DNA of 64,000 nt from Octopus vulgaris (taxonomy: Eukaryota), in the NCBI GenBank assembly GCA_951406725.2, contig OX597837.1:12586001-12650000 (forward strand), written 5' to 3'. The notes beneath the pieces were generated by a model. The model had not been told where the DNA came from, made no database searches, and was given only the letters and a program-made list of their open reading frames with translations. The position numbers were made by a program, and so were the translations under genes. Of the stretch, positions 6,239-63,005 are shown one piece after another. The first letter of the stretch is position 1. Every line of letters starts with the position of its first letter.

Positions 6239-7705
6239 ATGTCTGCCTTCACCAACTGGATTAAGCGTTATTCTTCATGTCGATGGAGATTATGCTATGC
6301 TTGTTGAATGAGTTGTCTTCTGCTACAAACAATGCGAGTGGATCTAAGTATGGCCTTTCTTTGTATGTTGAAACCCCTCAATCACACAAGAGGGGAGGTG
6401 AATTTTACTGCAAACAGCCAATATTGTTCCGGTTTGGATAATAATTCAATGAAAGCAAATTTTGAAGGAGAGTTCGAATGGAGTGACACCTTGCAAGCGA
6501 ACATCCTGGCTGGGTTCTTCTACGGATATATGGCAACTAATTTTCTAGGTGGTTTATTGGCAGACAAATACGGTGGGAAACGAGTTCTAGGGGGTTCGAT
6601 TCTCTAAGCAGCAATTCTTACAATTTTATACCCAAGTTTGTCTCGAATTAGTGGTTACTTTACGCTTGTACTAAGGATATTAACAGGCGTAGCATCAGGA
6701 CCCTTATTCCCAGCAATTCAGTCTTTATTTGGACGTTGGGGGCCCTCAAACGAAATTTCTGCATTGCTTGGGTTTACATTTTCTGGTCAGTTTCTAGGTG
6801 ATATCGTGGGTCTATCAATGTCTGGTTACCTCTGTGTATATGGATTTGATAATGGATGGGGTTCTATATTTTATACATTCGGTGGATTATCGTTGGTGTT
6901 TAGTTGTGTGTGGTTTTATGTGGTTTACGATAATCCAGACGTCCATCCCACTATCAGCGAAGAAGAACGTTCTTACATAAACAGAACTACAATAAGTGAA
7001 AAAGTTGTTAAAAATGTACCTTGGAAACGGCTGCTTTCTTCACCTGCAGTTTGGGCCATTATTTTCAGTTTGCCCATTTATGTTTGGATGGAGACATTTG
7101 TTCAGGTGTTGCTACCTCTATATATGAAAGACACCTTAAACATTGATGTAATATCCAGTGGTTTAATGTCATCTGCTCCTTCGGCTGGTCTAATGATTGG
7201 TCTACCTCTATGTGAAAAATTTGCAGATTTTGTACATTCAAAGAAATATCTGTCAACTCGTTCTGTTAGAGTCCTATTCCAAACCTTTTCTATGATTATT
7301 CCAGCAAGTCTGTTGACTGCCATAGGATTTCTTAGATGTGATCAGACCATTTTAATAACTTTCCTTTTGTTTCTCAGTGGTACAGCAATATCCTTTACCA
7401 GTGGTGGTGTTATCGTCAACAGCAATGACATAGCTCCAAGTTATGTTGGTATCATATTTGGAATTGGGAACACTTTTGCTGCAGCAGCGGGTAGCATTAA
7501 TTCTTTAACTACAAAAGCTTTAACCCCAAACGATACACAAATACAATGGCAGATCGTGTTTGCCTTATGTGCTGCTATATGTGTAGTTGGCGCAATATTC
7601 TTCGCAATAATGGCAAGAGGAGAAATCCAAGTTTGGGCAAGATCACAAGAACCCGGATCACGCGGTAATGCGGGCGACGTGAATATAAATAATATTGTTC
7701 AATAA
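6239..7705 (+). pseudogene. SLC17/sialin-like MFS transporter paralog 1, full length, two in-frame nonsense codons (TGA 6305-6307, TAA 6605-6607)
   Basis: ATG at 6239 (MSAFTNWIKRYSSCRWRLCYAC*). ORFs 6308 and 6638 are in the same frame. Same length as paralog 2; the TAA aligns to TCA (Ser) in paralog 2. Confidence 0.88.
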
Positions 7706-12063: not shown

Positions 12064-13530
12064 ATGCCTGGATTTGCCAACTGGATTAAACGCTATTATT
12101 CATGTCGATGGAGATTATGTTATGCCTGTACTATTGCTACGATTTTGATGCAAACACTAAGAGTTGATATCAGTATGGCTCTTGTGTGTTTGTTGAAAAC
12201 ACCGAATCGTACGACTGAGGAAGTTAACAATACTACAAGCAACCAACACTGTTCCGGTTCAGATAATTATTCAATGGATCAAAATTTTGAAGGAGAATTA
12301 CAATGGAGTGACACCTTGCAAGCGAACATCCTGGCTGGGTTCTTCTACGGATATACAGCAACTAATTTTCTAGGCGGTTTATTGGCAGACAAATACGGTG
12401 GGAAACGAGTTCTAGGGGGTTCGATTCTCTCAGCATCCATTCTTACAATTTTATACCCAAGTTTGTCTCGAATTAGTGGTTACTTTACGCTTGTACTAAG
12501 GATCTTAACAGGCGTAGCATCAGGACCCTTATTCCCAGCAATTCAGTCTTTCTTCGGACGTTGGTGTCCTCCAAGTGAAATTTCTGTATTCGTTGGGTTT
12601 ACATTTGCTGGTCAGTTCCTAGGTAACATTGTAGGTCTTTCTATATCTGGTTACCTCTGTGTATATGGATTTGATAATGGATGGGGTTCCATATTTTATG
12701 TATTCGGTGGAATATCGTTGCTGTTTTGCTGTGTGTGGTTTTATGTGGTTTACGATAATCCAGACGTCCATCCCACTATCAGCGAAGAAGAACGTTCTTA
12801 CATAAACAGAACTACAATAAGTGAAAAAGTTGTTAAAAATGTACCTTGGAAACGGCTGCTTTCTTCACCTGCAGTTTGGGCCATTATTTTCAGTTTGTTC
12901 GTTTATGACTGGATGGCGTCCACTTTTGAGGTTTTGCTACCTCTATATATGAAAGACACCTTAAACCTTCATATAATATCCAGTGGTTTAATGTCGTCTG
13001 CTCCTTCGGCTGGTCTAATGATTGGTCTACCTCTCTGTGGAAATTTTGCAGATTTTGTACATTCAAAGAAATATCTGTCAACTCGTTCTGTTAGAGTCCT
13101 ATTCGAAACCTTTTCTATGATTATTCCAGCAAGTCTGTTGACTGCCATAGGATTTCTTAGATGTGACCAGACCATTTTAATAACTTCGTTTTTGTTCCTC
13201 AGTGGTATAGCAATGTCATTTGCGAGTGGAGGTGCACTCGTGAATACCAGTGGCATTGCCCAGAGTTATGTTGGTATCATATTTGGAATTGGGAACACTT
13301 TTGCTGCAGCAGCGGGCAGCATTAATTCTTTAACTACAAAAGCTTTAACCTCAAACGATACACAAGAACAATGGCAGATCGTGTTTGCCTTATGTGCTGC
13401 TATATGTGTAGTTGGCGCAATATTCTTCGCAATAATGGCAAGAGGAGAAATCCAAGTTTGGGCAAAACCGCAAGAACCCGGATCATGTCGTAATGCGGGC
13501 GACGTGAATATAAATAATATTGTTCAATAA
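12064..13530 (+). CDS. SLC17/sialin-like MFS anion transporter paralog 2 (488 aa, single coding exon)
   Basis: RVDISMA (TM1), FFYGY, GGLLADKYGGKR (MFS motif A), RWCPP, FDNGWGSIFY, DNPDVHPTISEEE, VPWKRLLSSPAVWA and WQIVF are SLC17 signatures. ATG at 12064 aligns with the starts of the other paralogs. Confidence 0.93.
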   Translation: MPGFANWIKRYYSCRWRLCYACTIATILMQTLRVDISMALVCLLKTPNRTTEEVNNTTSNQHCSGSDNYSMDQNFEGELQWSDTLQANILAGFFYGYTATNFLGGLLADKYGGKRVLGGSILSASILTILYPSLSRISGYFTLVLRILTGVASGPLFPAIQSFFGRWCPPSEISVFVGFTFAGQFLGNIVGLSISGYLCVYGFDNGWGSIFYVFGGISLLFCCVWFYVVYDNPDVHPTISEEERSYINRTTISEKVVKNVPWKRLLSSPAVWAIIFSLFVYDWMASTFEVLLPLYMKDTLNLHIISSGLMSSAPSAGLMIGLPLCGNFADFVHSKKYLSTRSVRVLFETFSMIIPASLLTAIGFLRCDQTILITSFLFLSGIAMSFASGGALVNTSGIAQSYVGIIFGIGNTFAAAAGSINSLTTKALTSNDTQEQWQIVFALCAAICVVGAIFFAIMARGEIQVWAKPQEPGSCRNAGDVNINNIVQ

Positions 13531-16404: not shown

Positions 16405-17645
16405 TTGTGCTATTGAGGTTCAGATCTCCACAACACTTTTTGTTTCCAGACAATCAGATCATTTTCGTATTAAAATCATGACAGTTTTGAGGAAATCTTA
16501 ATTCTTGAGATTATCTCCGCTCTCCGTTTGAACTTCATCCGAATTACCACCAAATGATTGTCCCAAGAGCGGATATATTTTCAATAAATAAATTATTTAT
16601 TCTGTGTTATATTTAATATATCCACACAAGCATTTGATACAATGCGAATCCTTAATTTTTTCTAGGGTACGTGTGATTATTTGTTTAGTCCGATATGAAA
16701 AAATTCTCATGGCTGCCTTCGGCTTTGACGGATTAATGGTGTGCAAGAGACATATTTTGGAGAATGTTCCGACTCAAAATTATCTGGTGGCGACGCACCT
16801 ATCACTCAATGAGTTGTCCTACATCTTTAGTATAATTTTCATTAATTACCTAGTTTTTCATTTCGTTGCGTCTTTACATAATTATCTATTCATCTTGTCT
16901 TTAATTTGTATGCTAATTAGAGCATGTCCAATTATTAATAGTATAACATCGCTGTTCTGGCTCAAAGGTCTTCGCAAATTAATAGGATTGTATTCCATAA
17001 TGACGCCCACCCCTTTGGCAGTGGACAAAAGGAAGCCATATAAGATCATAGAGTAGAATAAAAATGTGTTCGACTTACAAATTTATGTTGCATGCTCTGT
17101 ATAATGTCTTCTTGAGCGTTTGTAAATGCTTTGGTATCAGTAATAAAAGGATCTATTATCACTAATGAAAATAAGCTGCTTGTTGTTGTTGTCCTTCATA
17201 TGAGTGTGTGTGTGTGTGTGTTTGTGTGTTTGTGTGTGTGTCTTTGCGTGTGTGGATGTGTGTCTGTGGATATGTGAGCGTGTATGTTATATTACATAAC
17301 ATTATATGACACGGTGTCTGAAATTTCAAAACTACTTATTAGTTGTGGAATTTCGAACATTCTTAAGAAAAAATGCCCCCTAAGAAAATATCAAATAAGA
17401 TGAGACAGAAAACAAGAAACGAATAGAAATGCGTTTTCCTTTTCATTTTGCATTTCAAATATTAAAGAGGCAAAATACTTCACCAAAAAGAATTCGTACA
17501 GTCGTACCAGTTGTGAAAGTTTGGACGCAAGTACTTTATCCATTAGAATTGAATAACTCAGAGGTCCAGCGCCGAGGTGAAGGTCTATTTCTTTGTTCAT
17601 AACTGAATCACACTTTCAAATTTCATGTGCTTAATGTCACATCTA
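16405..17645 (+). repeat. Segmental duplication block shared with 28076-29725 (paralog 3 / paralog 4 units)
   Basis: 16405-16950 is nearly identical to 28076-28625, and 17300-17645 matches 29180-29725. The duplicated spurious ORFs 16604 and 28276 show the same thing. Confidence 0.9.
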
Positions 17646-17659
17646 CCTACCTACCTACC

Positions 17660-19600
17660 TAGATAATTTCAGGCCCATCACTCTGCTTAACGCAGATCTG
17701 AAAATTTTGGCCAAAGTAATAGCCGAGAGGTTGGTAAACTGGTCGACAGGGCGCAAACATGGATCAGTCGGTACTTGGCGGCCGTCCTCAGGGCGGCTGG
17801 CTTCGGTCCCGTCTTCCGCGGTTGTATCGCTGCCTTGTATAGCGGCATCCGATCGGTGATTCGGGTGAACGACCACCTGTCGAAACCGTTTGACATCACG
17901 CGTTCGGTCCGTCAGAGGTGGCGAACGCGTACATCGCATCCGTCATCGATTACCGCCTGACCGTCGTGCCTTGTCCCGACGCCACCATCACCAAACTGGA
18001 ACGCATACTCTTCCGCTTCCTGTGGAAGGGTGGCGTTCCAATGGTGAGGAGGTCCATTTGCTGTCAATATCCGTTGAATGGAGGACTAGGCATGCCGTGG
18101 TTGATGATGCACAGGCATGAACTGAGACTGCGACATCTCCGGAACTTCATCGATGACGGTGAACAGGTGTGGGCGCCGTTTGTGAGGCGCGCCTTCCCGC
18201 AGCTCGTCTCACTGACCGAACTGCAAACGTAGATCAGGAAGAGACCGAAACTGGGCGATTGGCATCGAGAGTGTCGCCAAGCTCTACAGCAGCTCTGCCG
18301 ACCGGGGTCAAACTTGTTCAACTTACAAACGACTAAAGCGTTCTATAGAGGACTAGTGGAGGGGAGGTCCGATGACACGCTCGGGGCAAACATGGGCGTC
18401 GACGAGAAATTCCTAACCCGCCTTTTCAAGACGACGTTCGGGCCGGGGCCTATGGATAACTTCCAGAAATCCCTGGCTTGGCAATGCTATCGAGACGCAC
18501 TACCTGTTCGAGAGAAGAGCTACAGGCACGGTTCGAAAACCATCAGCGGACCGACCTGCCCGAGATGCGGTCAGAGCGACGAAACCGTTCTGCACGCACT
18601 CGTGCAGTGTCCAGATATTTCAGAGCTGTGGACCTTCGTCGAACAGCTGTTGTCACGTGCAGGACGGGCCCGCTTATCGGCCGAGTCTATCGTGAATATT
18701 GTTCCACCACCTTCCTTTAAACGGGAAGGGAAAACGGTTTTCGTTACGCTGATGGCTATGGCGAAAGAATGTGTGTGGTGGACGCGTTTGAAAGGACTGC
18801 GAACAAACACCTTCCTCTCTGGTCAGTCTCTCGTCACCTTTTTCAAGTACCACTTGAAAAGGAGGATGAGAATAGAGAGGAAGGCTTTGTCGAACGAATG
18901 TTCTAATAAAAAGTGGGTAAAAGTGGCACAAAATGGTCAGTATGAAAGCCGACACTATTTTAAGCATAAATCTGTGACCAAAAGAGACAACGAGAGGTAA
19001 GGCGACTTACTCATATGTTCATTTTCGAACTGTCTGAGGTGACCTTGGTCTTTTTTGTAGGTTTTTCTTTCCTGGAGCACCGCCTTTAGTCGAGCAAATC
19101 GACCCCGGGACTTATTCTTTGTAAGCCCAGTACTTATTCTATCGGTCTCTTTTGCCGAACCGCTAAGTGACGGGGACATAAACACACCAGCATCGGTTGT
19201 CAAGCAATGCTAGGGGGACAAACACAGACACACAAACCCACAAACACACACATACATATATACGACAGGCTTCTTTCAGTTTCCGTCTACCAAATCCACT
19301 CACAAGGCATTGGTCGGCCCGGCGCTATAGCAGAAGACACTTGCCCAAGATGCCACGCAGTGGGACTGAACCCGGAACCATGTGGTTGGTTAACAAGCTA
19401 CTTACCCACAGCCACTCCAGTGAATTTTATTTATATATATATATATTATATTTTTATACACCACTCAACCCACAGATCCCTATTGATCGAACCCTTTTTT
19501 TCTTTGTGTCCCACCCATCCCACCTCGAAAAGAAAAAACTCTACGTTGTATTTCGTCCATTTTTATTCTGTGTTTAGCCCTGTGTGGCCAAAATAAAAAG
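17660..19600 (+). mobile_element. 5'-truncated, internally deleted L1/Tx1-clade LINE (RT fragments, zf-RVT, 3' UTR) with nested SINE
   Basis: DNFRPITLLNADLKILAKVIAERL, IRVNDHLSKPFDITRSVRQ, FLWKGG...GGLGMP and CPRCGQSDETVLHALVQCP. GC-rich relative to the host. The 3' end runs into (TATC)n. Confidence 0.85.
19071..19418 (-). mobile_element. SINE family A (3'-clipped) nested in the LINE 3' UTR
   Basis: Matches the family A consensus seen at 52522 and 62588. Confidence 0.85.
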
Positions 19601-19908: not shown

Positions 19909-21062
19909 ATACAACTTCTTTCCAACGTTCAACCGGATTTTCAATACCTCGTTGGTAGAAATCACCCGATCGACTAGAAAAATTGATCCAATCAAGCTCT
20001 CAATTCTGCATCAGTATTGAACGAAACTCCGCGCACAGCATTTGAAAGAGACCGAAAGAGGCGGAAATCTGTTGGTGCCAAATCAGGAGAGTACGGCGGA
20101 TGTGGCAGCACTTCCCAGCCATGCGTTTGAAAGGCTTCCTTGGTCATATAGGCGATATGAGGGCGGGCGTTGTCGTGCAGCAGAAGAACTCCATGCTGAC
20201 GATTAGGTCTTTTCTCTTGAATAGCCGTGTTGAGTCGCTCCATCTGTTGAACATAGAGTTCCACGTTGACCGTTTGCTTCCGTTCAAGCAACTCATAATG
20301 GATAATCCCTTCCCAGTCCCACCATACGCACAACATCGTTTTACGTGGATGAAGATCTTGTTTCATGCGCGGTGTCGCTTGTTTACCGGGGCTAAGCCAT
20401 TCCTCATGCTGCTTCATATTGATGTACAGACACCATTTTTCGTCGCCAGTAACGATTCGGTAAAGAAATCGTTTCTTGTGTCCATGAGTTGGGCGGTAAC
20501 GAGCAAGGAAACCAGCGGAGATTGTGGCTCGTTGATTTTTGTTGTTGTCACTTAAAGCATGCGGAACCCATGCTCCATACTTCGGAAGATGCCTTTCTAT
20601 AGTGAAGATGCCTTTCTATAGCAGTGTGGGAGCATACATACCATTTTCTCTGCCTGTTCCCTTGTCGTTTGACGAGAATTTTCGTGCAAAAGTTGGTTTA
20701 ATCGCTCTTCATCGAACTCGAGTGGACGGTCAGAACGAGGTGCGTTTTCCATTTTTGAACATGGCATACCAATCACGAGCGGTTCTTTCAGCTACGGGAC
20801 CCTCTCCATGCACAGCACAAATGTCGCGAGCAGTTTTTGCGGCATTAGAACCTTGATTAAAAGCAAAAAGAAGGAGGTGTCGAAAATGCTCGTTTTTCTT
20901 AACTTCACATTCCATTTTAATGATCTGAAAACAATTAACTAAAATTAACTAGAAAAATGATTCAAAAATATAATTCTCGAAAAAAAATAGATTCCAAAAT
21001 TTAAAAACGCAATAAATTCCAAAATTGAAAAAACGGCGGGAACTCAATTGCCAACCCAATAT
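19909..21062 (-). mobile_element. mariner (DD34D) transposon, frameshifted, 3' end lost
   Basis: MECEVKKNEHFRHLLLFAFNQG...VAERTARDWY (HTH), VTGDEKW, HDNARPH and YSPDLAPTDF. TA-flanked 5' TIR ttgggttggcaattgagttcccgccg at about 21035-21060. Confidence 0.92.
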
Positions 21063-22994: not shown

Positions 22995-24458
22995 ATGTCT
23001 AAGTTTATCGAGTATACGAAGCGTTATTGTTCCTGTCGGTGGAGATTGTGTTATGCTTGTTTTTTTGCTTCTATACTCATACAAACATTCAAAGTCGATC
23101 TAAGTATGGCTTTTGTTTGTATGTTGAAAACACCCAATCGTACAACTGAGGAAGTTAAAATTTCTGTAAACAACCAACACTGTTCCGGTTCAGATAATTA
23201 TTCAATGAATCAAAATTTTGAAGGAGAATTCGAATGGAGTGCGACATTACAATCGAACATGTTGGCCGGGTACTTTTATGGATATATTATGTCTAATATT
23301 GTGGGTGGTTTCTTGGCTGATAAATACGGGGGGAAAAGAGTTGTGGCGGGTTCACTAATCTTAGCCTCTATTCTGTCTGTTCTTCACCCAAGTTTATCTC
23401 GAATTAGTGGTTACATTACGCTTGTTCTTAGAATTTTAACAGGTATGGTATCTGGACCTATATACCCAGCAATTCATTCAATATTTAGACGTTGGGGACC
23501 GCTACAGGAAATTGGTTCACTGATTGGGTTTTCATTTGCTGGTCAATTTCTAGGTACCTTCGTAGGCCATTCAGTATCAGGTTACCTTTGTGTTTATGGC
23601 TTTGATAATGGATGGGGTTCCATATTTTATGTATTTGGTAGTTTATCGCTGGCGTTTAGCTGTGTATGGTGTTATTTTGTTTATGATAATCCGGACACCC
23701 ACCCGACAATCACCGACGAAGAACGTTCTTATCTAAATACATCTATAACAAACAAAAAGGCAATTAAGAATGTACCATGGAAAAAATTATTTTCTTCACC
23801 TGCAGTTTGGGCAATTAACTTCGCTAAGTTCGCTAACAAGTGGATGCAAACATCTTTACAGGTATTGCTTCCTCTGTATATGAACGAAGCACTAAAAATT
23901 GAAATCACATCCAACGGTTTAATGTCGTCTGCCCATTCAATTGGACAAGTCATTGCTCTACCATTATGTGGGAATCTGGCAGATTTTGTACTTTCCAAGA
24001 AATATGCGTCAACTCGTTGTGTCCGTGTTTTGTTCCAAGACTTTTCTCTGATTCTACCTGGATGTTTATTAATTGCCGTAACTTTCCTCAGATGTGACCA
24101 AACCATTCTAATAAGTTTTCTCTTGTTTCGCTGTGGTGTAACAATATCATTTATCTGCGGTGGTGTTTACGTGAACAACAAAGATATTGCTCCAAAATAT
24201 GCAGGTATTGTATTTGGAATTGCAAACACTTTTGGAACAATAGCCAGCAGCATTTGTCCCTTATCTACGAAAGCCTTGACCCCAAACGGCACTAAAGAAG
24301 AATGGCAGATTGTGTTTGCATTGCTGTCTGGCATATGTTTATCTGGTGCAATCTTGTATACAATATTTGCAAGAGGAGAAATACAAGATTGGGCAAGGTC
24401 AGAAGAGTCTGGACCTTCCGTTAATCATAGCGACACACAATCAAATAAAATTGCTTAG
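22995..24458 (+). CDS. SLC17/sialin-like MFS transporter paralog 3 (487 aa, single coding exon)
   Basis: Intact ORF with the same SLC17 motifs. TM1 has K in place of the conserved R. Confidence 0.93.
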   Translation: MSKFIEYTKRYCSCRWRLCYACFFASILIQTFKVDLSMAFVCMLKTPNRTTEEVKISVNNQHCSGSDNYSMNQNFEGEFEWSATLQSNMLAGYFYGYIMSNIVGGFLADKYGGKRVVAGSLILASILSVLHPSLSRISGYITLVLRILTGMVSGPIYPAIHSIFRRWGPLQEIGSLIGFSFAGQFLGTFVGHSVSGYLCVYGFDNGWGSIFYVFGSLSLAFSCVWCYFVYDNPDTHPTITDEERSYLNTSITNKKAIKNVPWKKLFSSPAVWAINFAKFANKWMQTSLQVLLPLYMNEALKIEITSNGLMSSAHSIGQVIALPLCGNLADFVLSKKYASTRCVRVLFQDFSLILPGCLLIAVTFLRCDQTILISFLLFRCGVTISFICGGVYVNNKDIAPKYAGIVFGIANTFGTIASSICPLSTKALTPNGTKEEWQIVFALLSGICLSGAILYTIFARGEIQDWARSEESGPSVNHSDTQSNKIA

Positions 24459-27665: not shown

Positions 27666-27892
27666 ACTTCATCATATTTATTCTTTTCTATGATGTTCTA
27701 CCCCATTAATCACGTTATATAATTTGTAATGTTTGACATTTTACCGTAACCAGATATTTGCCATAAATCTTTCGACTCTTTCGTAACTATGTGAGAGCTC
27801 ATATGTACAACAGACAGTGAACTGTGGTATTATTGCCTTTTCCAAACATTACAATTTAAAACAAAATACCAGAATCTATGTCACATCTATGT

Positions 27893-28072
27893 AAGTTTGC
27901 AGATTTTCTACTTTCCAAGAAATATCCATCAACACGTTCTGTCCGAGTTTTATTCTCAGCCTTTTCTTTGACTGTTCCAGCATGTCTGTTAATTGTCACA
28001 GGCTTTCTCAGATGAGACCAAACCATTCTGATAATTCTGCTTTTGATTCTTAGTGGTGTAACAATATCATTT
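27893..28072 (+). pseudogene. Internally deleted SLC17 paralog relic (TM8 loop to TM10)
   Basis: Translates KFADFLLSKKYPSTRSVRVLFSAFSLTVPACLLIVTGFLR*DQTILIILLLILSGVTISF. Preceded by the paralog 5'-flank module (27740-27890) and followed by 3'-flank sequence. Confidence 0.85.
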
Positions 28073-29021
28073 CCTAGTGTGCTATTGAGGTTCAGATCTC
28101 AACAATTATTTTTGTTTCCAGACAATCAGATCGTTTTCGCATTAAAATCATGACAGTTTTGAAGAAATCTTAATTCTTGAGATTATCTCCGCTCTCCGTT
28201 TGAACTTCATCCGAATTACCACCAAATGATTGTCCTAGGAGCGGATATATTTTCAATAAATAAATTATTTATTCTGTGTTATATTTAAAATATCCACACA
28301 AGCATTCGATACAATGCGAATCCTTAATTTTTTCTAGGGTACGTGTGATTATTTTTTTAGTCCGATATGAAAAAATTCTCATGGCTGCCTTCGGCTTTGA
28401 CGGATTAATGGTGTGCAAGAGACATATTTTGGAGAATGTTCCGACTCAAAATTATCTGGTGGCCACGCACCTATCACTCAATGAGTTGTCCTCCATCTTT
28501 AGTATAATTTTCATTAATTACCTAGTTTTTCATTTCGTTGCATCTTAATATAATTATCTATTCATCTTGTCTTTAATTTGTATGCTAATTAGAGCATGTC
28601 CAATTATTAATAGTATAACATTGCTGGTATGGCCGATGGTTTTCGAGGAGTATTAGAACCGTATGTCCATTGTGATGCAAAAATGTTTACTGGTAGCGTA
28701 ATTTCGAATATTCACATTAAAAATATTCCTGCAGAAAATGGAATCCAATAAGATGAGATTGAAAACTGAAGCAGCGGAATATAATGTCCGTCATTGTCGC
28801 GACTCTCATCCGTCGATCACCCACCTGCTTTTGTATCTACCTTGATTGGTCAAGATACTACAGTTGCATTTAAATTTAAAGCAGAAACAGAAGGTTAAAT
28901 CAAAAAGAATTTGCTCATGAAGTTGTTATATTTCCTATGACTGTGTGTGTACTTATCTATTTGTCTATATTCATACATATCATATATCTGTGAGTATACA
29001 TCTGAGTTTGTGTGTGTGTGC

Positions 29022-34381: not shown

Positions 34382-35845
34382 ATGTCTAAGTTTATCGAGT
34401 ATACGAAGCGTTATTGTTCCTGTCGGTGGAGAGTGTGTTACGCTTGTTTTATTGTTTCTATACTCATACAAACATTCAAAGTCGATCTAAGTATGGCTTT
34501 TGTTTGTATGTTGAAAACGCCCAATAGTACAACTGAGGAAGTTAACATTTCTGTAAACAACCAACACTGTTCCGGTTCAGATAATTATTCAATAAACCAA
34601 AATTTTGAAGGAGAATTCGAATGGAGTGCCACATTACAATCGAACATGTTGGCCGGGTACTTTTATGGATTTATTATGTCTAATATTGTGGGTGGTTTCT
34701 TGGCTGATAAATACGGGGGGAAAAGAGTTGTGGCGGGTTCACTAATCTTAGCCTCTATTCTGTCTGTTCTTCACCCAAGTTTATCTCGAATTAGTGGTTA
34801 CATTACGCTTGTTCTTAGAATTTTAACAGGTATGGTATCTGGACCTATATACCCAGCAATTCATTCAATATTTAGACGTTGGGGACCGCCACAGGAAATT
34901 GGTTCACTGATTGGGTTTTCATTTGCTGGTCAATTTCTAGGTACCTTCATAGGCCATTCAGTATCAGGTTACCTTTGTGTTTATGGCTTTGATAATGGAT
35001 GGGGTTCCATATTTTATGTATTTGGTAGTTTATCGCTGGCGTTTAGCTGTGTATGGTGTTATTTTGTTTATGATAATCCGGACACCCACCCGACAATCAC
35101 CGACGAAGAACGTTCTTATCTAAATACATCTATAACAAACAAAAAGGCAATTAAGAATGTACCATGGAAAAAACTATTTTCTTCACCTGCAGTTTGGGCA
35201 ATTAACTTCGCTAAGTTCGCTAACAAGTGGATGCAAACATATTTACAGGTATTGCTTCCTCTATATATGAACGAAGCACTAAAAATTGAAATCACATCCA
35301 ACGGTTTAATGTCGTCTGCCAATTCAATTGGACAAGTCATTGCTCTACCATTATGTGGGAATCTGGCAGATTTTGTACTTTCCAAGAAATATGTGTCAAC
35401 TCGTTGTGTCCGTGTTTTGTTCCAAGACTTTTCTCTGATTCTACCTGGATGTTTATTAATTGCCGTAACTTTCCTCAGATGTGACCAAACCGTTCTAATA
35501 AGTTTTCTGTTATTTCTCTGTGGTGTAACAATGTCTTTTGTCTGTGGTGGTGTTTACGTGAACAACAAAGATATTGCTCCAAAATATGCAGGTATTGTAT
35601 ATGGAATTGCAAACACTTTTGGAACAATAGCCAGCAGTATTTGTCCCTTATCTACGAAAGCCTTGACCCCAAACGGCACTAAAGAAGAATGGCAGATTGT
35701 GTTTGCATTGTTGGCTGCCATATGTTTATCTGGTGCAATCTTGTATACAATATTTGCAAGAGGAGAAATACAAGATTGGGCAAGGTCAGAAGAGTCTGGA
35801 CCTTCCGTTAATCATAGCGACACACAATCAAATAAAATTGCTTAG
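34382..35845 (+). CDS. SLC17/sialin-like MFS transporter paralog 4 (487 aa), recent duplicate of paralog 3
   Basis: Intact ORF, nearly identical to paralog 3 including flanks. Confidence 0.93.
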   Translation: MSKFIEYTKRYCSCRWRVCYACFIVSILIQTFKVDLSMAFVCMLKTPNSTTEEVNISVNNQHCSGSDNYSINQNFEGEFEWSATLQSNMLAGYFYGFIMSNIVGGFLADKYGGKRVVAGSLILASILSVLHPSLSRISGYITLVLRILTGMVSGPIYPAIHSIFRRWGPPQEIGSLIGFSFAGQFLGTFIGHSVSGYLCVYGFDNGWGSIFYVFGSLSLAFSCVWCYFVYDNPDTHPTITDEERSYLNTSITNKKAIKNVPWKKLFSSPAVWAINFAKFANKWMQTYLQVLLPLYMNEALKIEITSNGLMSSANSIGQVIALPLCGNLADFVLSKKYVSTRCVRVLFQDFSLILPGCLLIAVTFLRCDQTVLISFLLFLCGVTMSFVCGGVYVNNKDIAPKYAGIVYGIANTFGTIASSICPLSTKALTPNGTKEEWQIVFALLAAICLSGAILYTIFARGEIQDWARSEESGPSVNHSDTQSNKIA

Positions 35846-38637: not shown

Positions 38638-39522
38638 GTACACACTGATATTAAAATAAAAGCGAACCATACATAAATACGATGGCCTATGAGTAACCAA
38701 CAAAACCATTGTAATTGACTCATCGAAAGTACAAAGCACTTTATATTCTATTTATGAAAGACAATATCACAAAATAGACAACAAACGAAAATACAACAAA
38801 TGAAACTTCAAAAGTGAATAATATAAAATAACACGAAAAGATCTTCCCTTCGTAATATGAGAAATGTTAGAGACAGCTGAATCTGGAGCACGCAGATTTA
38901 ACAGTCGCAATTCCGATGGCCAGTCGCCAGATGAATGTCGAGAATACGATACTTAGAAAGGTTTAAGAATGTGAAATAAAATGTCACTTTTTTCACACAA
39001 AGTAATTGATAATTCATTTACTTTATATTTAAACAAATCTACCGAGAAAACAACCGCTTACGACATTTTGAGAGAGAAGTAACTGAACGACCATTTTGAG
39101 AAAGATCTGAATGACCTCCAGTAGCGTTGATCATTTAAATCTCGTAGCCAGCACAAATGGGATTATCCTCTGAAGATAACGTATTAAGAAAAAAACAACT
39201 TAATCACTAAATGTATACACTTGTACAAATGTGGATGTGTATAATTCATCCAATGGAATCACGGAGCGCAGGCATTCCGCAGGGACAAGTATTCTATTGT
39301 AACGCTGTAAGTACGTTTTGTTATTCACCACCGGCACAAAATTTTGTATACGTAGTATTGTATATACACAGTTTTATACACTCATATACATACAGTCTCA
39401 CACGTACACTGACATATTCATTCACTGAAACATAAATGAAACGCATACTTAACCCTGTAAAACCTTACGCAAACGCACACACACACAAACAAACACATAA
39501 ATAGATATATATTACCCTTGCA

Positions 39523-41251
<1,729 letters not shown>

Positions 41252-41930
41252 TATATATACACATCTGCATATATAATTATATATGCATGCATGTATATTA
41301 AGAAAAAGAGGGTAGTCGGGACTTGGATAAAAATTACTTATTTATTTAAAACTCACCAAATACATACACATACTTACACACACGTACACGCACCCACACA
41401 CATATCGATACAAAATAACAAAGAACTCGTATAACAGCTCCCAAAGTTGTTATAAGTATAACTGAATTAAATTCAGTATATTTGGTATATACATAGTATA
41501 TATCAAATCAATAACAAGAACTATTTACTTAATTACAGGACGATAAGTATAAGATATCGTAAAATATGGTATCCAATATAAAGGGTAATTGAGTTAGAGG
41601 CATACTAAGTGTAGAAGGGATAACTAAACCGCTTTGGGCAGGTAAACAGTTAATGAATGTTGCATGATTTAAAAATATACTAAAATAAGGATTTCCATAT
41701 CCAGTAAATTATATAAAAAGACATTACAAAAAATGATTTATGCGTTACAACAGCTAGGAAAGTATATAAAAGGATATTTAAATGTATAAAAATATCAAAT
41801 ATAAAAAATTAATAACACAACGTTTAATTATAAGTATAAAATATGATATTGCATTATACGATGAGTGTTATGAAAAGAGATTATAAACTCTCTATAAGCT
41901 TTATAAGCTACACAAATGTATAAGGGGGTA

Positions 41931-46271: not shown

Positions 46272-47759
46272 ATGTCTCAATTTACGCTCTGGATAAAGCG
46301 TTATTCTTCTTGTCGTTGGAGACTATGTTATGCCTGTGCTGCTGCTAGTCTTTTGATGCAAACATTAAGAGTTAATCTAAGCATGGCATTTGTTTGTATG
46401 TTGAAACCACTCAATCGTACGACTGAGGAAGTTAGCTTTACTGCAAACGAACATCGTTGTTCTGCATTGCATAATTATTCATCAAATCGAAATTATGAAG
46501 GAGAGTTTGAATGGAGTGACAAATTACAATCAAACATGCTAGCTGGTTACTTTTATGGATATATAGGGACTAACATTGTCGGTGGTTTATTGGCAGATAA
46601 ATATGGTGGGAAAAGAGTTCTGGGGGCTTCATTTCTCTCATCATCAATTTTGACCATTCTCCACCCAAGTTTATCACGAGTTAGTGGGTACTTTACTCTT
46701 GTCCTACGGATATTAACAGGTGCGGTATCGGGGCCGATCTATCCTGCGCTTCAGTCCTTATTTGGACGTTGGGCTCCTTCACAAGAAATTAGTTTGTTGA
46801 TTGCCATTATATTTTCCGCCCAGTATTTAGGTAGTATTTTATGTCTTTCGATATCAGGTTACCTTTGTGTGTATGGGTTTGATAATGGATGGGGTTCTAT
46901 ATTTTACATATTTGGTGGAATATGTTTGGTTTTTAGTTGTGTGTGGTTTTATGTAGTTTACGATAATCCAGACGTCCATCCCACTATCAGCGAAGAAGAA
47001 TATTCTTACTTAAGCAGAACTATAGTGAGTGAAAAAGTAGTTAAAAATGTACCCTGGAAACGGCTGTTCTCTTCACCTGCAGTTTGGGCCATCATTTTTG
47101 GTTGGTTTGCTTATTGTTGGACTACTCTAGCTTTCCAGGTGTTGTTACCTCTTTATGTGAAAGAAGCTTTAAACGTTAATACAACATCCAACGGTTTAAT
47201 GTCGTCTGTCACTGCATTTGGACAAATAATTGCTCTACCGTTGTGGGGAAAATGCGCAAATATTGTACTTTCAAAGAAATATCTGTCAACGCGTTCTGTT
47301 CGAGTTTTATTCCACACTTTGTCTATGTTAGGTTCAGCAAGTCTGTTAATCGCGATAGGATTCCTCGGATGTGGCAAAAACACTTTAATAATTATCCTGT
47401 TGTTTCTTAGTGGTATAACTCTATCCTTTTCCAGTGGTGGTGTTACCGTCAACAACATTGACATTGCTCCAAATTATGCAGGCGTTGTTTTTGGAATTGC
47501 CAACGCTTTTGGAACAGCAGCCGGCAGTATTAGTACGGTGTCTGCAAAAGCTCTCACTCCAAATGGTACACAAGAAGAATGGCAGATCGTGTTAGCCTTG
47601 TTTGCTGCTGTATGTGTAGCTGGTGCAATATTGTTTGCGATATTAGCAAGAGGAGAAGTCCAAGATTGGGCGCGTATAGAGAGAACTGAATCGCTTGAAA
47701 ATTCCAAAACAGTGAATGTTAACTTAATACCTATTTCTTTATTACCCACAAGGGGCTAA
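46272..47759 (+). CDS. SLC17/sialin-like MFS transporter paralog 5 (495 aa; last 8 residues SINE-derived)
   Basis: Intact ORF with RVNLSMA and the other SLC17 motifs. The stop TAA lies inside an antisense SINE B. Confidence 0.93.
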   Translation: MSQFTLWIKRYSSCRWRLCYACAAASLLMQTLRVNLSMAFVCMLKPLNRTTEEVSFTANEHRCSALHNYSSNRNYEGEFEWSDKLQSNMLAGYFYGYIGTNIVGGLLADKYGGKRVLGASFLSSSILTILHPSLSRVSGYFTLVLRILTGAVSGPIYPALQSLFGRWAPSQEISLLIAIIFSAQYLGSILCLSISGYLCVYGFDNGWGSIFYIFGGICLVFSCVWFYVVYDNPDVHPTISEEEYSYLSRTIVSEKVVKNVPWKRLFSSPAVWAIIFGWFAYCWTTLAFQVLLPLYVKEALNVNTTSNGLMSSVTAFGQIIALPLWGKCANIVLSKKYLSTRSVRVLFHTLSMLGSASLLIAIGFLGCGKNTLIIILLFLSGITLSFSSGGVTVNNIDIAPNYAGVVFGIANAFGTAAGSISTVSAKALTPNGTQEEWQIVLALFAAVCVAGAILFAILARGEVQDWARIERTESLENSKTVNVNLIPISLLPTRG

Positions 47760-52521: not shown

Positions 52522-52733
52522 TTTTACTCTTTTACTTGTTTCAGTCATTTGACTGCGGCCATGCTGGAGCACCGCCTTTAGTCGAGCAACTCGACCCTGG
52601 GACTTATTCTTTGTAAGCCCAGTACTTATTCTATCGGTCTCTTTTGCCGAACCGCTAAGTTACTGGGACATAAACACACCAGCATCGGTTGTCAAGCAAT
52701 GCTAGGGGGACAAACACAGACACAGACACACAA

Positions 52734-52786
<53 letters not shown>

Positions 52787-53905
52787 TACGACGGGCTTCT
52801 TTCAATTTCCGTCTACCAAATCCACTCACAAGGCTTTGGTCGGTCCTAGGCTATAGTGGAAGATACTTGCCCAAGGTGCCACGCAGTGGGACTGAACCCG
52901 GAACCATGTGGTTGGTAAGCAAGCTACTTACTACACAGCCACTCCTGCGCCATATATATATATATATACATATATACGACGGGTTTCTTTCAGTTTCCGT
53001 CTACCAAATCCACTCACAAGGCTTTCGTCGGTCCGAGGCTATAGCAGAAGACACTTGCCCAAGATGCCACGCAGTGGGACTGAACCCGGAACCATGTGGT
53101 TGGTAAGCAAGCTACTTACCGCACAGCCACTCCTGCGCCTATTATGTAATCCTTGATCGATGACGTCTGAAATCGAACTCGTTCCGTCCTTACCCACGTG
53201 AAGGCGCGTGTCTTAATGGTGGGAGGTATTCAGCTCACGATCTTAAGGTTGTGAGTTCGATCCCCGGCGGGGTTTGTGTCCTTGAGCAAGGTACTTTATT
53301 TCACATTGCTCCAGTCCTCACAGTTGACGAAAATGAATAGTGCCACCTCTATTTCAAAAACACCCACTTTTAGTATCTACAACAATGTATAAACTAAAAC
53401 CTTTTTCCATGCAAAAGGGTCGGAGTAGCATGTGAGTCCTTATTTTTCCTTCTGTGCTTCCATCTTTCTCGTTTCTCTTATTTAATTTTTGACTCCTTTA
53501 TTTGTTTCAGCCATTTAACTGCGGCCATGCTGGAGCACCGTCTTTAGTCGAACAAATGGACCGCAGGAGTTATTCTTTGTAAGCCTAGTACTTATTCTAT
53601 GGGTTTCTTTTGCTGAACCGCTAAGTTACGGGGACGTAAACACACCACCATCGGTTGCCAGGTGATGATGGGGGAACAAATATAGACACACAAACACTCA
53701 CACACACACATACACACACACACACACATATATATATATACGACAGTCTTCTTCAGTTTTCGTCTACCAGATCCACTCAGATGGCTTTGGTTGGCCCGAG
53801 GCTACAGTAGAAAACACTTACTTGCCAAAGGTGCCCGTAGTGGGACTGAACCTGGAACCATGTGGTTGGTATGCAAGCTACTTACTACACAGCCACTCCT
53901 GTACC
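52522..53905. mobile_element. SINE A copies (52522-53140 with duplicated head; 53490-53905; minus) flanking another tRNA/CORE-like SINE head (53200-53345, plus)
   Basis: Family A consensus. The plus-strand head is aggcgcgtgtcttaatggt...gagttcgatcccc...gtgtccttgagcaag. Confidence 0.8.
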
Positions 53906-55083
53906 TATGTTTATATAAAATACAAATGTGAAACTCACCTTAAGAATACATATAGCAATATAATTTCACATGAACTTTGATACAAAAACAGTTATTCTTT
54001 GAATATATATCGGCCGAGATGTACCATGCCCACCGCACCCGATTTTGACTGGCCCCCTTCCCCAAAAATTTCAGGCCTTGTGCCTAGAGTAGAAAAGTGT
54101 ATTGATGTAGCAAGAGATTAATTTTGTAAAATATTCCAGCCCTAAAGATCTGCTGCGCTGTCACCTATATGTGGATTTGTTGGTCTATTTGTTTAGTACA
54201 CTTTTTTTGTAAATATATATGTTTTAATTATGCTGTGATTTAATATAGTTGCCCATTTACGGTGTATTCAATTTGAATCGTATTTTTAACACGTCCATTA
54301 ATAGTGTAACATCTCCGAAATGATCCTATATTTTTCGCGGATTATTCGGAACAAAATATTTCTGACAGCTCCACTTCATTAAAATATTTCTGGGTATAGA
54401 CAAAACGAAGTCATATAAAGCCAAATAGAGAAAAGTATTCTTGATTTAATATAATTCTGTAATGTCCATCCGAAACCCTTGCAATCCCTATGCGTAACAT
54501 TTGCCTTGTTTGTGTCAAAAGACATTTGTGACAATAAATGGAATACAGCCTTTTTTGTTGTTATTGTTGTTGTTGTTGTCTTTCTTGTCTAACAAGATGT
54601 TAAGTGTATGTTCATGTTACGAATTAATTTTGTGAATTTTCAAACACTGGATGCTCATTCCTGTGCCAAATCGACAGGAATTGATATAAAAAAGATGACA
54701 ATATTTTATTTTCATTTTTGGAACTGTTTATGGACGAAAGAAATATTAAATAATTTTACATAATTCGACATTGCATAAGCATATATAATTCTAAATAATT
54801 CTAAAGAGACAGAATGAAAAAAGAAACGATAGTGAAAGGAAGGGGTTTCATAGCGATTTCTATTTTTTGAAAACAATGAAAACGAAGAGGTCGCTATAAG
54901 AAAAGTAGAGATTATATGTCACCGTAAATTTTTTTCAGAAAGTAAACAAAACAAATACTAGAAATTAACTCAAATTTTCATCCAATATTACCAAAAATAA
55001 AAGAAAATAAACAAATGAGAAGGATAGTTATTCGCAACTACTGAATGTATCTTGGTCTCCCATGTTCTAGCTAGGCAAAACGA

Positions 55084-56559
55084 TCAACGAATTTTCTCAT
55101 CTCTTCCTTTTGTATTCCTGTTGCTAGGATGCACAGATGATCCGGGTACTTCTGGACCTGTCCAATCTTGGATCTCTCCTTTTGCTAATATTGCAAAAAA
55201 TATTGCACCAAATACACAAATAGCAGCGTACACGGCGAACGTGATCTGCCATTCTTTTTGTGTACCGTTTGGTGTTAGAGCGTTAGTAGATACGGCGCTA
55301 ATGCAGCCTGCTATGGAAGTAAATGTGTTGGCAAATCCAAACACAATACCAGCATAACTTGGAGCAATGTCATTGTTATTGACGAGGGCACCACCACTGG
55401 TAACTGATATTGTTATACCACTGAGAAACAAAAGGAGAGTTATTAGAACGGTTTGGTCACATCTAAGGAATCCTATGGCAATCAGCAGACATGCTGAAGC
55501 CACCATGGAAAATGTTTGGAATAAAACTCGTACGGAACGAGTTGACAGATATTTCTTGGAACGTAAAATATCTGCACATTTTCCACACAACGGTAGAGCA
55601 ATGATTTGTCCAATGGAAGGAACAGACGACATTAAACCGTTCGCTGTTGTATTAACGTTTAAGGCTTCTTTCATATACAGAGGGAGCAATACTTGGAAAG
55701 ATATATCAGTCCAGCCATAAGAAAACATACCGAAATTAATAGCCCATACGGCAGGTGAGAAAATCAGTCGTCGCCAAGGCAGATTCTTGACTACATTTTC
55801 ACTTACTATAGTCCTTTTTAAGTAAGAACGTTCTTCTTCGCTGATTGTGGGATGGACGTCTGGATTATCATAAACAATGTAAAACCATACACAACTAAAT
55901 ACCAACGATATTCCACCAAATATATAAAATATGGAACCCCATCCATTATCAAATCCATAAACACAAAGAAAACCAGATATTGAAAGACCTACAATACTAC
56001 CTATAAACTGACCAGCAAATGAAAACCCAATCAAAGAACTGATTTCTTTTGGAGGGCCCCAACGTCCAAATAAGGACTGAATTGATGGGGGCACCGCTGA
56101 CGATGCCATGCCAGTTAATATCCTTAGAAAAAGTGTAAAGTAACCACTAATTCGAGATAAACTTGGGTAAAGAATGGTCAAAATTGATGCTATGAGAAGT
56201 GAACCTCCAAGAACCCTTTTCCCACCATATTTATCTGCCAATACACCACCCAAAATATTAGTTGCTATATACCCATAGAAGTACCCTGCCAACATATTCG
56301 ATTGTAGAGCATCGCTCCATTCGAACTCTCCTTCATAGTTTTGATTCATAGAATTATTGTCCGAAGTAGAACACTCTCGGTTGTTTGCAGTAATGTTAAC
56401 CTTCTCAGTTGTACGATTGAGTGGTTTCAACATACAAACAAAAGCCATGCTTAGATCAACTCTTAATGTTTGCATCAGAAGAAAAGCAACAGTACAGGCA
56501 TAACATAATCTCCATCGACATGAAGTGTAATGTTTCACCCATCTGATAAACCTCGACAT
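55084..56559 (-). CDS. SLC17/sialin-like MFS transporter paralog 6 (491 aa), inverted relative to the others
   Basis: Intact ORF with all SLC17 motifs. The homologous 5'-flank module extends to ~57860 on the minus strand. Confidence 0.93.
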   Translation of the reverse strand: MSRFIRWVKHYTSCRWRLCYACTVAFLLMQTLRVDLSMAFVCMLKPLNRTTEKVNITANNRECSTSDNNSMNQNYEGEFEWSDALQSNMLAGYFYGYIATNILGGVLADKYGGKRVLGGSLLIASILTILYPSLSRISGYFTLFLRILTGMASSAVPPSIQSLFGRWGPPKEISSLIGFSFAGQFIGSIVGLSISGFLCVYGFDNGWGSIFYIFGGISLVFSCVWFYIVYDNPDVHPTISEEERSYLKRTIVSENVVKNLPWRRLIFSPAVWAINFGMFSYGWTDISFQVLLPLYMKEALNVNTTANGLMSSVPSIGQIIALPLCGKCADILRSKKYLSTRSVRVLFQTFSMVASACLLIAIGFLRCDQTVLITLLLFLSGITISVTSGGALVNNNDIAPSYAGIVFGFANTFTSIAGCISAVSTNALTPNGTQKEWQITFAVYAAICVFGAIFFAILAKGEIQDWTGPEVPGSSVHPSNRNTKGRDEKIR

Positions 56560-61200: not shown

Positions 61201-62580
61201 TTTTGAGTATTGGTGGAAGGGCTGATGCCTTGGGCATTAAGCAAAAATGTTGAGGCGAGAGTGGATAGTTTTAATTGTTTTGGTGTTTTGTTTATTTGAT
61301 TGCTTTTTAATGGCATGTGCAGTGGGGTGATAGTGGTGAATGGTGGTGGGTGATAGCTCGGATGTTTTTTTCCAGTTCTTTTGCTAGATTCATTATAGCT
61401 AAAAAAGAGGAAGAAGTTTCCTGTCTAGGGAACTGTAGGTGACTGTGGTTGTGGTTATTATTATATGAGTGGTTATTGTTATATGAGTCGTAGGTTTTTT
61501 TGTTTTTATTTTTACTTTTATAATCAATTGTCCGACGAGTCCCCGGGAGATGGGTAAAGGGGCAATCTCTGTGCAAACACAATCTGTCTCGCTGGGAATA
61601 GCGGCAGATTTGAGGATTCCTTCTTTTAGTTATTGGTGGTTGTGGTGGTGTTGTAATAGAGTATGCATTATGGTGGTAGCTGTTGTAGTTTGTGGGGATA
61701 TAGCGTTTTGTTCCCGGTAAATGGGTGAATTTGCAGTCGCTATCAGTGCATAATTTATGGCGAAGAGAATATCGGCAAATGATGGGGTTTCGAGTGGGTG
61801 TGTAGGTGCGTGTATGAGTTGTAGATGATAGTTTGTTGAGGTTTTGGCGACCTTTGTGACCTGAGGAGGTAGACTCCTTGAGATAGCATTAGTAGTAGTA
61901 GTTGTAGTAGTAGTAGTAGGCAGAAGAGATGATGACAGTGATGATGATTGAGGAGGTGGATTCCATGATATAGCGGTAGACAAAGATGTTTGTGGATAGA
62001 TAGTGGGTGTAGTACTAGTAGTTGTAAGCAGGGGAGAAGATGTTGACAATGATGATAATTGAGCTGCTGGGGCAGTGAAAGGAAGGGGTGGTGCTTCCTG
62101 CTGTGTGACCCTGATGACTGGGGGGGGGTCAATCGTTTCGTTTAGCAAATCGGCCATTGTAGAAGAATCAAGGAGTGGTTCATACTCTTGTTGTTGCCGC
62201 TGAGGTTGTTGTTGGTGCTGCTGAAGTTGTTGTTGTTGTTGTTGTTGTTGCCGCTGAGTTTGTTGTTGAGGTTGTTGTTGTTGTTGTTGTGCCGGAGATG
62301 CGTTCGAAGAGAAAACACATCTCAGTTTATCGAAGTGTTTATTTATTAATTTAAAAGCAACTTCGATTTGTTTTAATTTATTTTGTATCTGCTGTTCAGA
62401 TCGAGTTTGCAAATGATGAACTGTTCGTTTAGCAATTTCGTTCAGACACGAAGCTCCTATTCTCTCTGTTTGGGTAAGGCCACGCCATGTGCTGATAAAA
62501 CGTCGATTTCATTATCAGACCAGTTTTTGTTGGATTTTTGGTAGCTAGCCATTCTGGTGGATATGTTTTATTAAATTTTA
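58205..62580 (-). mobile_element. Near-complete CR1/L2-group LINE: ORF1 (~62412-61307, frameshifted) and ORF2 APE-RT (61316-58295)
   Basis: APE: LNAQG, LTETH, GLYRPP, MGDFN, LDLIF, SDH. RT: DFSKAFD, SGVPQGTVLGPLLF, FADD, RPHLEYC. ORF2 is broken only by TAG 59711-59709 and a 4-bp duplication near 58468. Short (TTCTAAGTTA)n tail. Confidence 0.9.
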
Positions 62581-62587
62581 TTTTGTT

Positions 62588-63005
62588 ACTCTCTTTACTC
62601 TTTACTCTTTTACTTGTTTCAGTCATTTGACTGCGGCCATGCTGGAGCACCGCCTTTAGTCGAGCAAATCGACCCCAGGACTTATTCTTTGTAAGCCCAG
62701 TACTTATTCTATCGGTCTCTTTTGCCGAACCGCTAAGTGACGGGGACGTAAACACACTAGCATCGGTTGTCAAGCAATGCTAGGGGGACAAACACACACA
62801 CAAACACACACACATACACACATATATACATATATATACATATATACGACAGGCTTCTTTCAGTTTCCGTCTACCAAATCCACTCACAAGGCATTGGTCG
62901 GCCTGGGACTATAGCAGAAGACACTTGCCCAAAGTGCCATGCAGTGGGACTGAACCCGGAACCATGTGGTTGGTTAGCAACCTACTTACCACACAGCCAC
63001 TCCTG
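62588..63005 (-). mobile_element. SINE family A, full length
   Basis: Family consensus including the (GAGTAAAA)n tail and tRNA-like head. Confidence 0.88.

Follow-up and report, generated by a model that had tools for sequence, protein, structure and literature searches.

The TM7 pocket patch of the octopus SLC17 array is a real and statistically solid feature of these transporters. Our best explanation, which we consider probable, is that the TM7 pocket of the tandem copies was re-tuned after duplication and then fixed, each copy likely carrying a different organic anion. Most changes of the pocket residues separate young duplicates and few separate species, hence the copies likely carry different small molecules and, on this explanation, would not be mere dosage copies. 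The gene expansion itself was already known; what appears to be new here is the pocket-focused divergence among its copies.

An array of six transporter genes

We analysed a 64-kb stretch of Octopus vulgaris DNA, called the window below, which contains six full-length single-exon copies of an MFS protein of 487-495 aa and one relic fragment, in DNA where microsatellites and mobile-element relics are abundant. Copy 1 (6239..7705, forward strand) is full-length and carries stops at 6305 (TGA) and 6605 (TAA). Both stops are in frame without any frameshift, and the copy may be either a young pseudogene or the result of an assembly error. Copy 2 (12064..13530, forward strand) is intact and intronless, and encodes 488 aa with 12 predicted TM helices. 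Copies 3 (22995..24458, 487 aa) and 4 (34382..35845) are both intact, lie on the forward strand and share 96% identity. Copy 5 (46272..47759, forward strand, 495 aa) and copy 6 (55084..56559, opposite strand, 491 aa) are intact as well. The relic of a seventh copy (27887..28078, forward strand) matches aa 324-388, i.e. TM8-TM10, with one stop. Directly after it, a 600-bp stretch at 28078-28678 has 94% identity to 16406-17006.

Sequence and predicted fold place the window genes in the SLC17 / anion:cation symporter branch of the MFS. The phmmer match to sialin has an E-value of 1e-86, and the Pfam domain MFS_1 was found in 4/4 copies scanned. The predicted structure of copy 2 (pLDDT 87.7, pTM 0.88) has sialin and VGLUT2 as its top Foldseek matches with TM-scores of 0.73-0.84, ranks 1-10 being occupied by sialin, VGLUT2 and DgoT.

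Relatives named sialin or slc-17.2-like were found in the databases for O. sinensis, O. vulgaris, O. bimaculoides and Argonauta hians, and in each species (O. bimaculoides, O. sinensis, O. vulgaris and Argonauta) most relatives of the array sit on one contig. An O. sinensis relative is 98% identical to copy 5, and the O. bimaculoides orthologs of copies 5 and 6 show about 94-95% identity. For copy 2, the database search found no annotated near-identical protein, the best match having 80% identity. The coding regions of all six window copies are intron-free. The array proteins have an N-terminal tail of 10-12 residues versus 45 in a single-copy octopus sister gene, which is located on another and much longer contig than the array. 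It is possible that the array originated from a 5'-shortened retrocopy.

The variable patch of TM7 lines the substrate pocket

The most variable part of the six proteins is a patch of 14 residues in TM7, located at 12889..12930 (forward strand, aa 276-289) in copy 2 and at 7064-7105, 23820-23861, 35207-35248, 47097-47138 and 55693-55734 in copies 1, 3, 4, 5 and 6, respectively, the patch of copy 3 being dibasic. The six 14-residue strings quoted in the original prediction are exact, and they are flanked by SPAVWAI(I/N) and VLLPLY in all copies. Among the six copies 12 of the 14 patch columns vary, versus 241 of 456 overall, with F276 and W283 invariant. The patch has the top residue diversity of all 14-residue windows in the six genes (score 29, the best non-overlapping window scoring 20). 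The net charge had been described as running from acidic to dibasic to neutral; charge changes do exist, and they fall on five pocket positions (defined below) or on the gate position 289, but copy 6 has a net charge of -1 and is not neutral.

The patch was predicted to be a cavity-lining part of TM7, and this is supported, as five of its positions match the pocket residues H298, Y301, N302, F305 and Y306 of sialin. Across TM7 the alignment to sialin (8dwi) runs without gaps at an offset of 20, and the model of copy 2 has one continuous helix at 269-298. According to the accessible text of Hu et al. (PMC9858498), the sialin pocket consists of Y54, R57, Y119, H298, Y301, N302, F305, Y306, S411 and N430, and L309 is the luminal seal. 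Schmiege et al. (PMC11116495) add F179, Y203, Q207 and H414, and the part of their paper that we draw on gives E171 and E175 as proton-sensing residues and a loss of transport upon mutation of H298, Y301, S411, Y306 or L309; PMC11649914 was a further source, in part, for the SLC17 background. This list was drawn from the papers independently of the octopus data, with exposure assigned by homology. Since an outside list names them, we take 278, 281, 282, 285 and 286 (copy 2 numbering) as the pocket positions. In copy 2 the equivalents of H298, Y301, N302, F305 and Y306 are Leu (codon start 12895), Tyr (12904), Asp (12907), Ala (12916) and Ser (12919), respectively, and the equivalent of the luminal-gate residue L309 is Glu (12928). 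That the variable residues face lipid was ruled out by mapping them, by homology, onto the sialin pocket.

Rates of change across the family

The fast rate of change is restricted to the pocket-facing positions and does not extend to the whole patch. The tree of the array proteins has a basal grade of 13 proteins and a younger crown clade, of which 45 proteins, including window copies 2-6, were used. The protein rate sets do not include copy 1 and the short or redundant array models, and the outgroup does not include P0157, P0159 and P0162, which have gaps. In the 45 crown proteins the mean site rate of the five pocket positions is 2.55, versus 0.98 for the 332 TM sites, the positions 278, 281, 282, 285 and 286 lying at the 98th, 83rd, 98th, 97th and 95th percentiles, respectively. 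The mean pocket rate is 2.37 in the 34 crown proteins that are left after removing 11 window genes and orthologs. For both crown sets the P value of the excess was printed as 0.0000 with 20,000 random TM sets. As the excess stays after the window genes and their orthologs are dropped, the family rate result is independent of the post hoc choice of the patch. The other eight patch sites have rates of 1.14 and 0.98 in the two crown sets, which are not significant, and without the window genes the 14-residue patch window drops to rank 36 of 443.

The same five positions are slow in the 89 outgroup SLC17s, with a mean rate of 0.59. As a partition, they evolve at 3.5x in the 45 crown proteins, 3.1x in the 34 crown proteins and 0.57x in the 89 outgroup proteins. 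A general variability of TM7 in all SLC17s was ruled out, the patch window ranking 357 of 443 in the outgroup and 178 of 443 in the 13 basal members. Outside TM7, the equivalents of F179 and S411 reach the 99th and 96th site-rate percentiles in the crown, and the nine literature contacts there, taken together, show no significant rate excess (P=0.11-0.20).

The crown clade has replaced most of the sialin pocket wall while retaining the anion clamp. H298 is kept and N302 mostly kept in the basal grade of 13 proteins. All crown members have H298, Y306, L309 and Y335 replaced, and the replacement concerns 42/45 crown proteins for N302 and 42/43 for H414. H298 is thus kept in 0/45 crown versus 74/89 outgroup proteins, Y306 in 0/45 versus 84/89 and N302 in 3/45 versus 80/89. 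For the sialic-acid pocket, F305 is found in 0/45 and S411 in 0/43 crown proteins, and only Y301 is common (29/44), with Y29 H8 N3 K2 L1 F1 at this position in 44 crown proteins. For the anion clamp, R168 of TM4 is kept in 45/45, Y119 of TM2 in 41/45 (Phe in 4) and R57 of TM1 in 34/38 proteins, the other 4 having Lys. The N430 equivalent is kept in 36/42 crown proteins, and the equivalents of S61 and W303 are also retained. At the positions of E171 and E175 the array has Thr (58/58) and Ser (56/58), respectively; only 4/89 outgroup proteins have E171 and 6/89 have E175, so the lack of these glutamates is no peculiarity of the array and is shared by most mollusc relatives.

Pocket variation was also observed in other molluscs. 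In the Haliotis proteins P0108, P0115, P0118, P0120, P0124 and P0148 and the Mytilus proteins P0121 and P0131, the positions of H298, Y301 and F305 vary and Y306 is kept. The abalone and mussel SLC17 paralogs may possibly represent an independent and milder pocket divergence.

Codon-level selection

Positive selection at the five pocket codons is borderline. We fitted codon models with our own implementation to the six window genes, the patch region having been picked on these same genes. The patch codons have an omega of 1.01 versus the gene mean of 0.30, ranking 2 of 456 windows; the whole-patch omega is 1.0 (0.69-1.45), and that of the 14 literature contacts is 0.91 (0.62-1.32). The five pocket codons have an omega of 2.0 (95% 1.1-3.9, p=0.025) with six genes and 2.5 (1.2-6.7, p=0.012) with five genes. 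They rank 1 of 236 helical-face sets, and a neutral simulation gave P of about 0.01 (1,500 runs). If the synonymous rate is left free, the omega of these five codons drops to 1.0-1.1.

The original prediction called for PAML-type site tests, and these gave a mixed answer. M7/M8 is significant (p=0.008; 0.0002 without copy 1) and the fixed-site test of the five codons is borderline, but M8a/M8 (p=0.23; 0.34 without copy 1) and M1a/M2a (p=0.59; 0.56 without copy 1) on the six genes are not significant. Diversifying selection on specificity, as originally proposed, is hence supported in part: the TM7 pocket sites diversify far beyond the other membrane sites, also in the 34 members unrelated to the window genes, but a dN/dS above 1 is not established.

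The near-neutral averages agree with a relaxed constraint, which we consider an unlikely explanation. It holds that after the loss of the H298/N302/Y306 wall the copies became broad-specificity anion exporters whose TM7 face drifts nearly neutrally, and that having many copies matters for dosage or for expression in tissues, not for new substrates. The average omega of the patch is about 1, the 3.1-fold protein rate multiplied by the gene omega of 0.28-0.30 projects to about 0.9, i.e. neutral on average, and M8a is not rejected. Young duplicates are also often relaxed, as are copy 1 as a putative pseudogene, copy 2 with an omega of about 0.8 and the relic fragment. Yet the five pocket sites outpace the luminal loop, whose partition speed is 1.2x, about threefold, and the timing described below also speaks against relaxation.

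Paralogs differ and orthologs agree

Most of the pocket change took place between young paralogs, and little of it between orthologs of different species. Orthology was set by hand from the tree and the nearest neighbours, with some of the database models being incomplete. When O. bimaculoides is compared with the vulgaris/sinensis group in 13 one-to-one ortholog pairs, the pocket differs at 7/63 sites versus 455/5286 elsewhere (ratio 1.3). In seven independent young paralog pairs it differs at 12/35 sites versus 156/2796 elsewhere (ratio 6.2), a ratio inflated by gene conversion, which lowers the divergence of tandem neighbours in the rest of the gene. The difference between paralogs and orthologs is significant (Fisher p=0.0008; p=0.0006 without copies 1/2). 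Three of the seven young pairs show no pocket change. Before cleaning, the totals were 9/64 for orthologs and 19/45 for young paralogs. The pair P0182/P0013 was dropped as P0182 is out of register in TM7, and P0060 with 3 scorable sites was used in its place; two of the three non-independent pairs in the P0003/P0052/P0056 trio were also dropped.

These comparisons argue against the relaxed constraint. The orthologs keep their pocket, with 7 changes versus 16.6 expected at the family-wide factor (P=0.007), and the acceleration in the young pairs is 6-7.5x at the five pocket sites but only 1.6-2.2x at the eight non-pocket patch sites. We infer from an average omega near 1 together with the constraint between orthologs that there were faster-than-neutral episodes after duplication, and short bursts of positive selection at that stage are likely.

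The original prediction went further and suggested a receptor-like repertoire. This would be an arms-race family under continuing diversifying selection, with a large set of pockets to sense or handle foreign molecules such as prey, microbial or toxic compounds and possibly with transceptors among its members, and we regard it as very unlikely. The 26 loci carry 24 different five-residue signatures, of which one is incomplete, and the point estimate of omega is 2-2.5 at the five codons. Close relatives can differ in the pocket as well: copy 3 and its O. sinensis ortholog have K/M at 278 with 7 differences in the other 451 sites, and contigs from the sequencing runs X5 and X11 have, among the differences listed, a Glu-to-Ala change at 289. 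Against it, nine closer ortholog pairs (window versus O. sinensis and O. vulgaris versus O. sinensis) differ at 1/45 pocket sites, the same as the background of 88/3849, and most of the deeper orthologs are identical at the five sites. The tails of the proteins are short without an added signalling domain, and the anion clamp and the gating residues are retained, as in carriers. With the pocket mostly shared across species (7/63 and 1/45), the receptor-like hypervariable repertoire is not borne out.

Copies 3 and 4 share all five pocket residues. At individual loci the pocket is kept between species: the five pocket residues of copy 5 and all 14 patch residues of copy 6 recur unchanged in the orthologs of O. 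sinensis and O. bimaculoides, and four basal ortholog pairs have 0/20 pocket differences. Differing paralogs with constant orthologs are the pattern of a fixed specialisation and not of a continuing hypervariability.

Gene conversion between copies 1 and 2

These two genes are old paralogs that were partly homogenised by gene conversion. They were described as almost identical on both sides of the patch, with 8 differing residues in it and another cluster of changes in TM10. The 8/14 differences (12 nt; about 10 non-synonymous and 2 synonymous) and the TM10 cluster are both present, and there are 0 differences in the 42 upstream codons, but the two copies are only 84% identical overall and have further clusters of differences at aa 1-79 and in TM5. 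Four homogenised segments have a third-position difference of 0.015-0.06 and three islands one of 0.36-0.44; the patch lies at 0.20, and old paralog pairs give 0.29-0.33 for comparison. The islands of copy 2, all on the forward strand, are unconverted and cover the N-tail, TM1 and luminal loop (12064..12300; third-position 24/67 over aa 13-79), TM5 (12553..12645, aa 164-194, copy 1: 6728-6820; 12/31) and TM10 (13183..13263, aa 374-400, copy 1: 7358-7438; 12/27).

The islands and the homogenised segments have different histories. In the islands the split of copies 1 and 2 lies at the base of the six-gene tree and omega is normal, and in the homogenised segments the two copies are young, with omegas of about 0.56 and 0.84 versus 0.22 (p=0.016). 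The contrast between the two copies thus stems for the most part from a conversion mosaic, in which TM1, TM5, TM7 and TM10 lie in unconverted islands, and this reading was preferred over a recent burst of replacements. The islands cover 9/12 literature contacts downstream of aa 80 (P=0.002); without the patch the overlap is 4 contacts with P=0.024, and both remaining islands holding a contact has P=0.09. This fits selection against overwriting of the pocket, or blocking of conversion by mismatches where the divergence was already high.

The patch could also be a by-product of conversion, imported from unsampled paralogs or pseudogenes and kept by mismatch-blocked homogenisation with no functional selection, which is in part what the original prediction had allowed for. 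We find this highly improbable as an account of the pocket. The clear mosaic of copies 1 and 2, splitting at the base of the six-gene tree in the islands, speaks for it, and so does a contig of run X2 that, among the differences listed, joins the unchanged copy-2 patch to copy-1-type letters at codons 302-304. However, no donor of the copy-2 patch was found among the sampled array proteins (best match 53%), 0/22 candidate short proteins carry this patch, and conversion leaves unexplained why the family-wide excess lies on five helically spaced positions and not on their neighbours. In the single O. bimaculoides relative, the N-terminus resembles that of copy 2 and the patch that of copy 1.

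Several observations on the patch of copy 2 come from the contigs of four sequencing runs and from the alignment. If a one-base shift and its compensation are allowed, the last five patch codons at 12916-12930 can be aligned to 7091-7105, and fewer mutational events may lie behind the 8 residue differences. In a contig of run X11, position 12921 is deleted and an insertion follows 12925. In run X5, over 12857-13301, the contig depth over copy 2 is 220-460 in places versus 55-73 elsewhere, a hint at further copy-2-like duplicates in that organism, contig depth being a poor measure of copy number.

As evidence for function this pair of genes is the weakest and the family-wide result is stronger, given the likely pseudogene state of copy 1 and the losses in copy 2. 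At codons 13246-13263 (aa 395-400) of copy 2 the equivalents of the near-invariant D416 and P419 and of H414 are replaced. The D416 equivalent is Asp in 89/89 outgroup and 41/43 crown proteins. Copy 2 may be decaying, as its loss of the D416 equivalent and an omega of about 0.8 since the last conversion suggest, or it may be strongly re-tuned.

Proposed mechanism and relation to known systems

Each copy most likely functions as an alternating-access organic-anion carrier. The conserved arginines of the N-domain would still clamp a carboxylate or another anion, and the wall formed by TM7, TM4 and TM10 (278, 281, 282, 285, 286, plus 157 and 392) would read the rest of the substrate. An acidic wall as in copies 1, 2 and 6 would favour zwitterions or amine-bearing acids, and a dibasic wall as in copies 3 and 4 would favour di- or poly-anions. 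Both proton-sensing glutamates of sialin are absent, making a sialin-type H+ symport unlikely, and transport is likely driven by voltage or a gradient. The short N-tail without a dileucine signal is a weak pointer to the plasma membrane as the location of these carriers.

Vertebrate sialin, SLC17A5 (PDB 8dwi, 8u3d-h, 9ayb), is the closest solved structure with about 36% identity. The array keeps its equivalents of R57, S61, Y119, R168, W303 and N430. Unlike sialin, the array has Thr/Ser at E171/E175 and Gln at Y54, and has H298, N302, F305, Y306, L309, Y335 and H414 replaced. The sequence thus indicates that the array copies are not sialic-acid/H+ symporters. No N-terminal dileucine motif was found in the array proteins examined or in the single-copy octopus sister gene, whereas P0158 and P0166, two vertebrate-type relatives, have one; the array differs from such relatives in its N-tail of 12 residues without the motif.

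The VGLUTs (SLC17A6-8) have the same fold with about 30% identity. VGLUT3 and sialin, which have different substrates, differ at the positions of H298, Y301 and N302, and these TM7 positions are among those varying in the array. VGLUT3 has Arg at the Y301 position, where none of the 44 crown proteins has Arg and two have Lys. The 89 outgroup SLC17s mostly keep H298, N302 and Y306, but the octopod crown released all three. SLC17A1-4 are plasma-membrane, voltage-driven organic-anion exporters, and pocket divergence after duplication is familiar in transporter families.

Expansions of sialin-clade SLC17 genes by local duplication are described in the accessible part of PMC2824716 for amphioxus, Drosophila, C. 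elegans and mammals (SLC17A1-4), and the array resembles them in having grown by local duplication of a gene of the sialin clade. In the reviews PMC6110919 and PMC6062618, Albertin et al. 2015 is the source given for an octopus expansion of "sialins", and the window array is very likely part of it. The suggestion that this is an undescribed system was therefore overstated. The octopus sialin expansion has been listed among the cephalopod novelties since 2015, and the passages citing it give only the copy number, with no function and no mention of pocket divergence, timing or a conversion mosaic. Our literature search, with subscription papers mostly outside its scope, found no paper that deals with selection on the SLC17 genes of octopus or with divergence of their pocket. 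The accessible part of a 2026 preprint on glutamatergic evolution (10.64898/2026.09.05.749567) does not mention octopus, and sialin or slc-17.2 had no match in the readable supplements of PMC9712504 (3 files searched) and PMC9815951 (1 file).

A further comparison is with the octopus chemotactile receptors, ligand-gated channels whose sensory function has been shown. They too arose in octopods by tandem expansion from an old gene related to neural function or transport, and their ligand pocket changes fast; they differ from the array in being channels. In a bolder scenario, which we consider quite unlikely, octopods turned a sialin-like carrier into two dozen or more distinct pockets by positive selection on the TM7 face, protected from conversion, for sensing, secretion or detoxification. 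If true, the array would be the transporter counterpart of the chemotactile receptor family, in octopod-specific tissues.

For our preferred explanation, a pocket re-tuned after duplication and then fixed, the specificity code is narrowed to about five to seven named residues, and de-orphaning by residue swaps is therefore a direct experiment. The copies also form a naturally occurring set of pocket variants built on the sialin/VGLUT scaffold, of use for studies of SLC17 selectivity.

Other elements in the window

Mobile elements lie between and beside the gene copies. A zf-RVT retroelement relic (18314-19000, forward strand) and a Mariner-type transposase relic (19992-20417, reverse strand) were found with Pfam between copies 2 and 3. 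A LINE-type retroelement occupies 58422-61316 on the reverse strand, with an endonuclease ORF at 59709-61316 and a reverse-transcriptase ORF at 58422-59666 (Pfam). A SINE-like repeat of about 400 bp, itself containing a tandem unit, is scattered over the window in at least seven copies, at 1334-2261, 19072-19457, 39470-39758, 40925-41252, 52522-53927 and 62585-63042.
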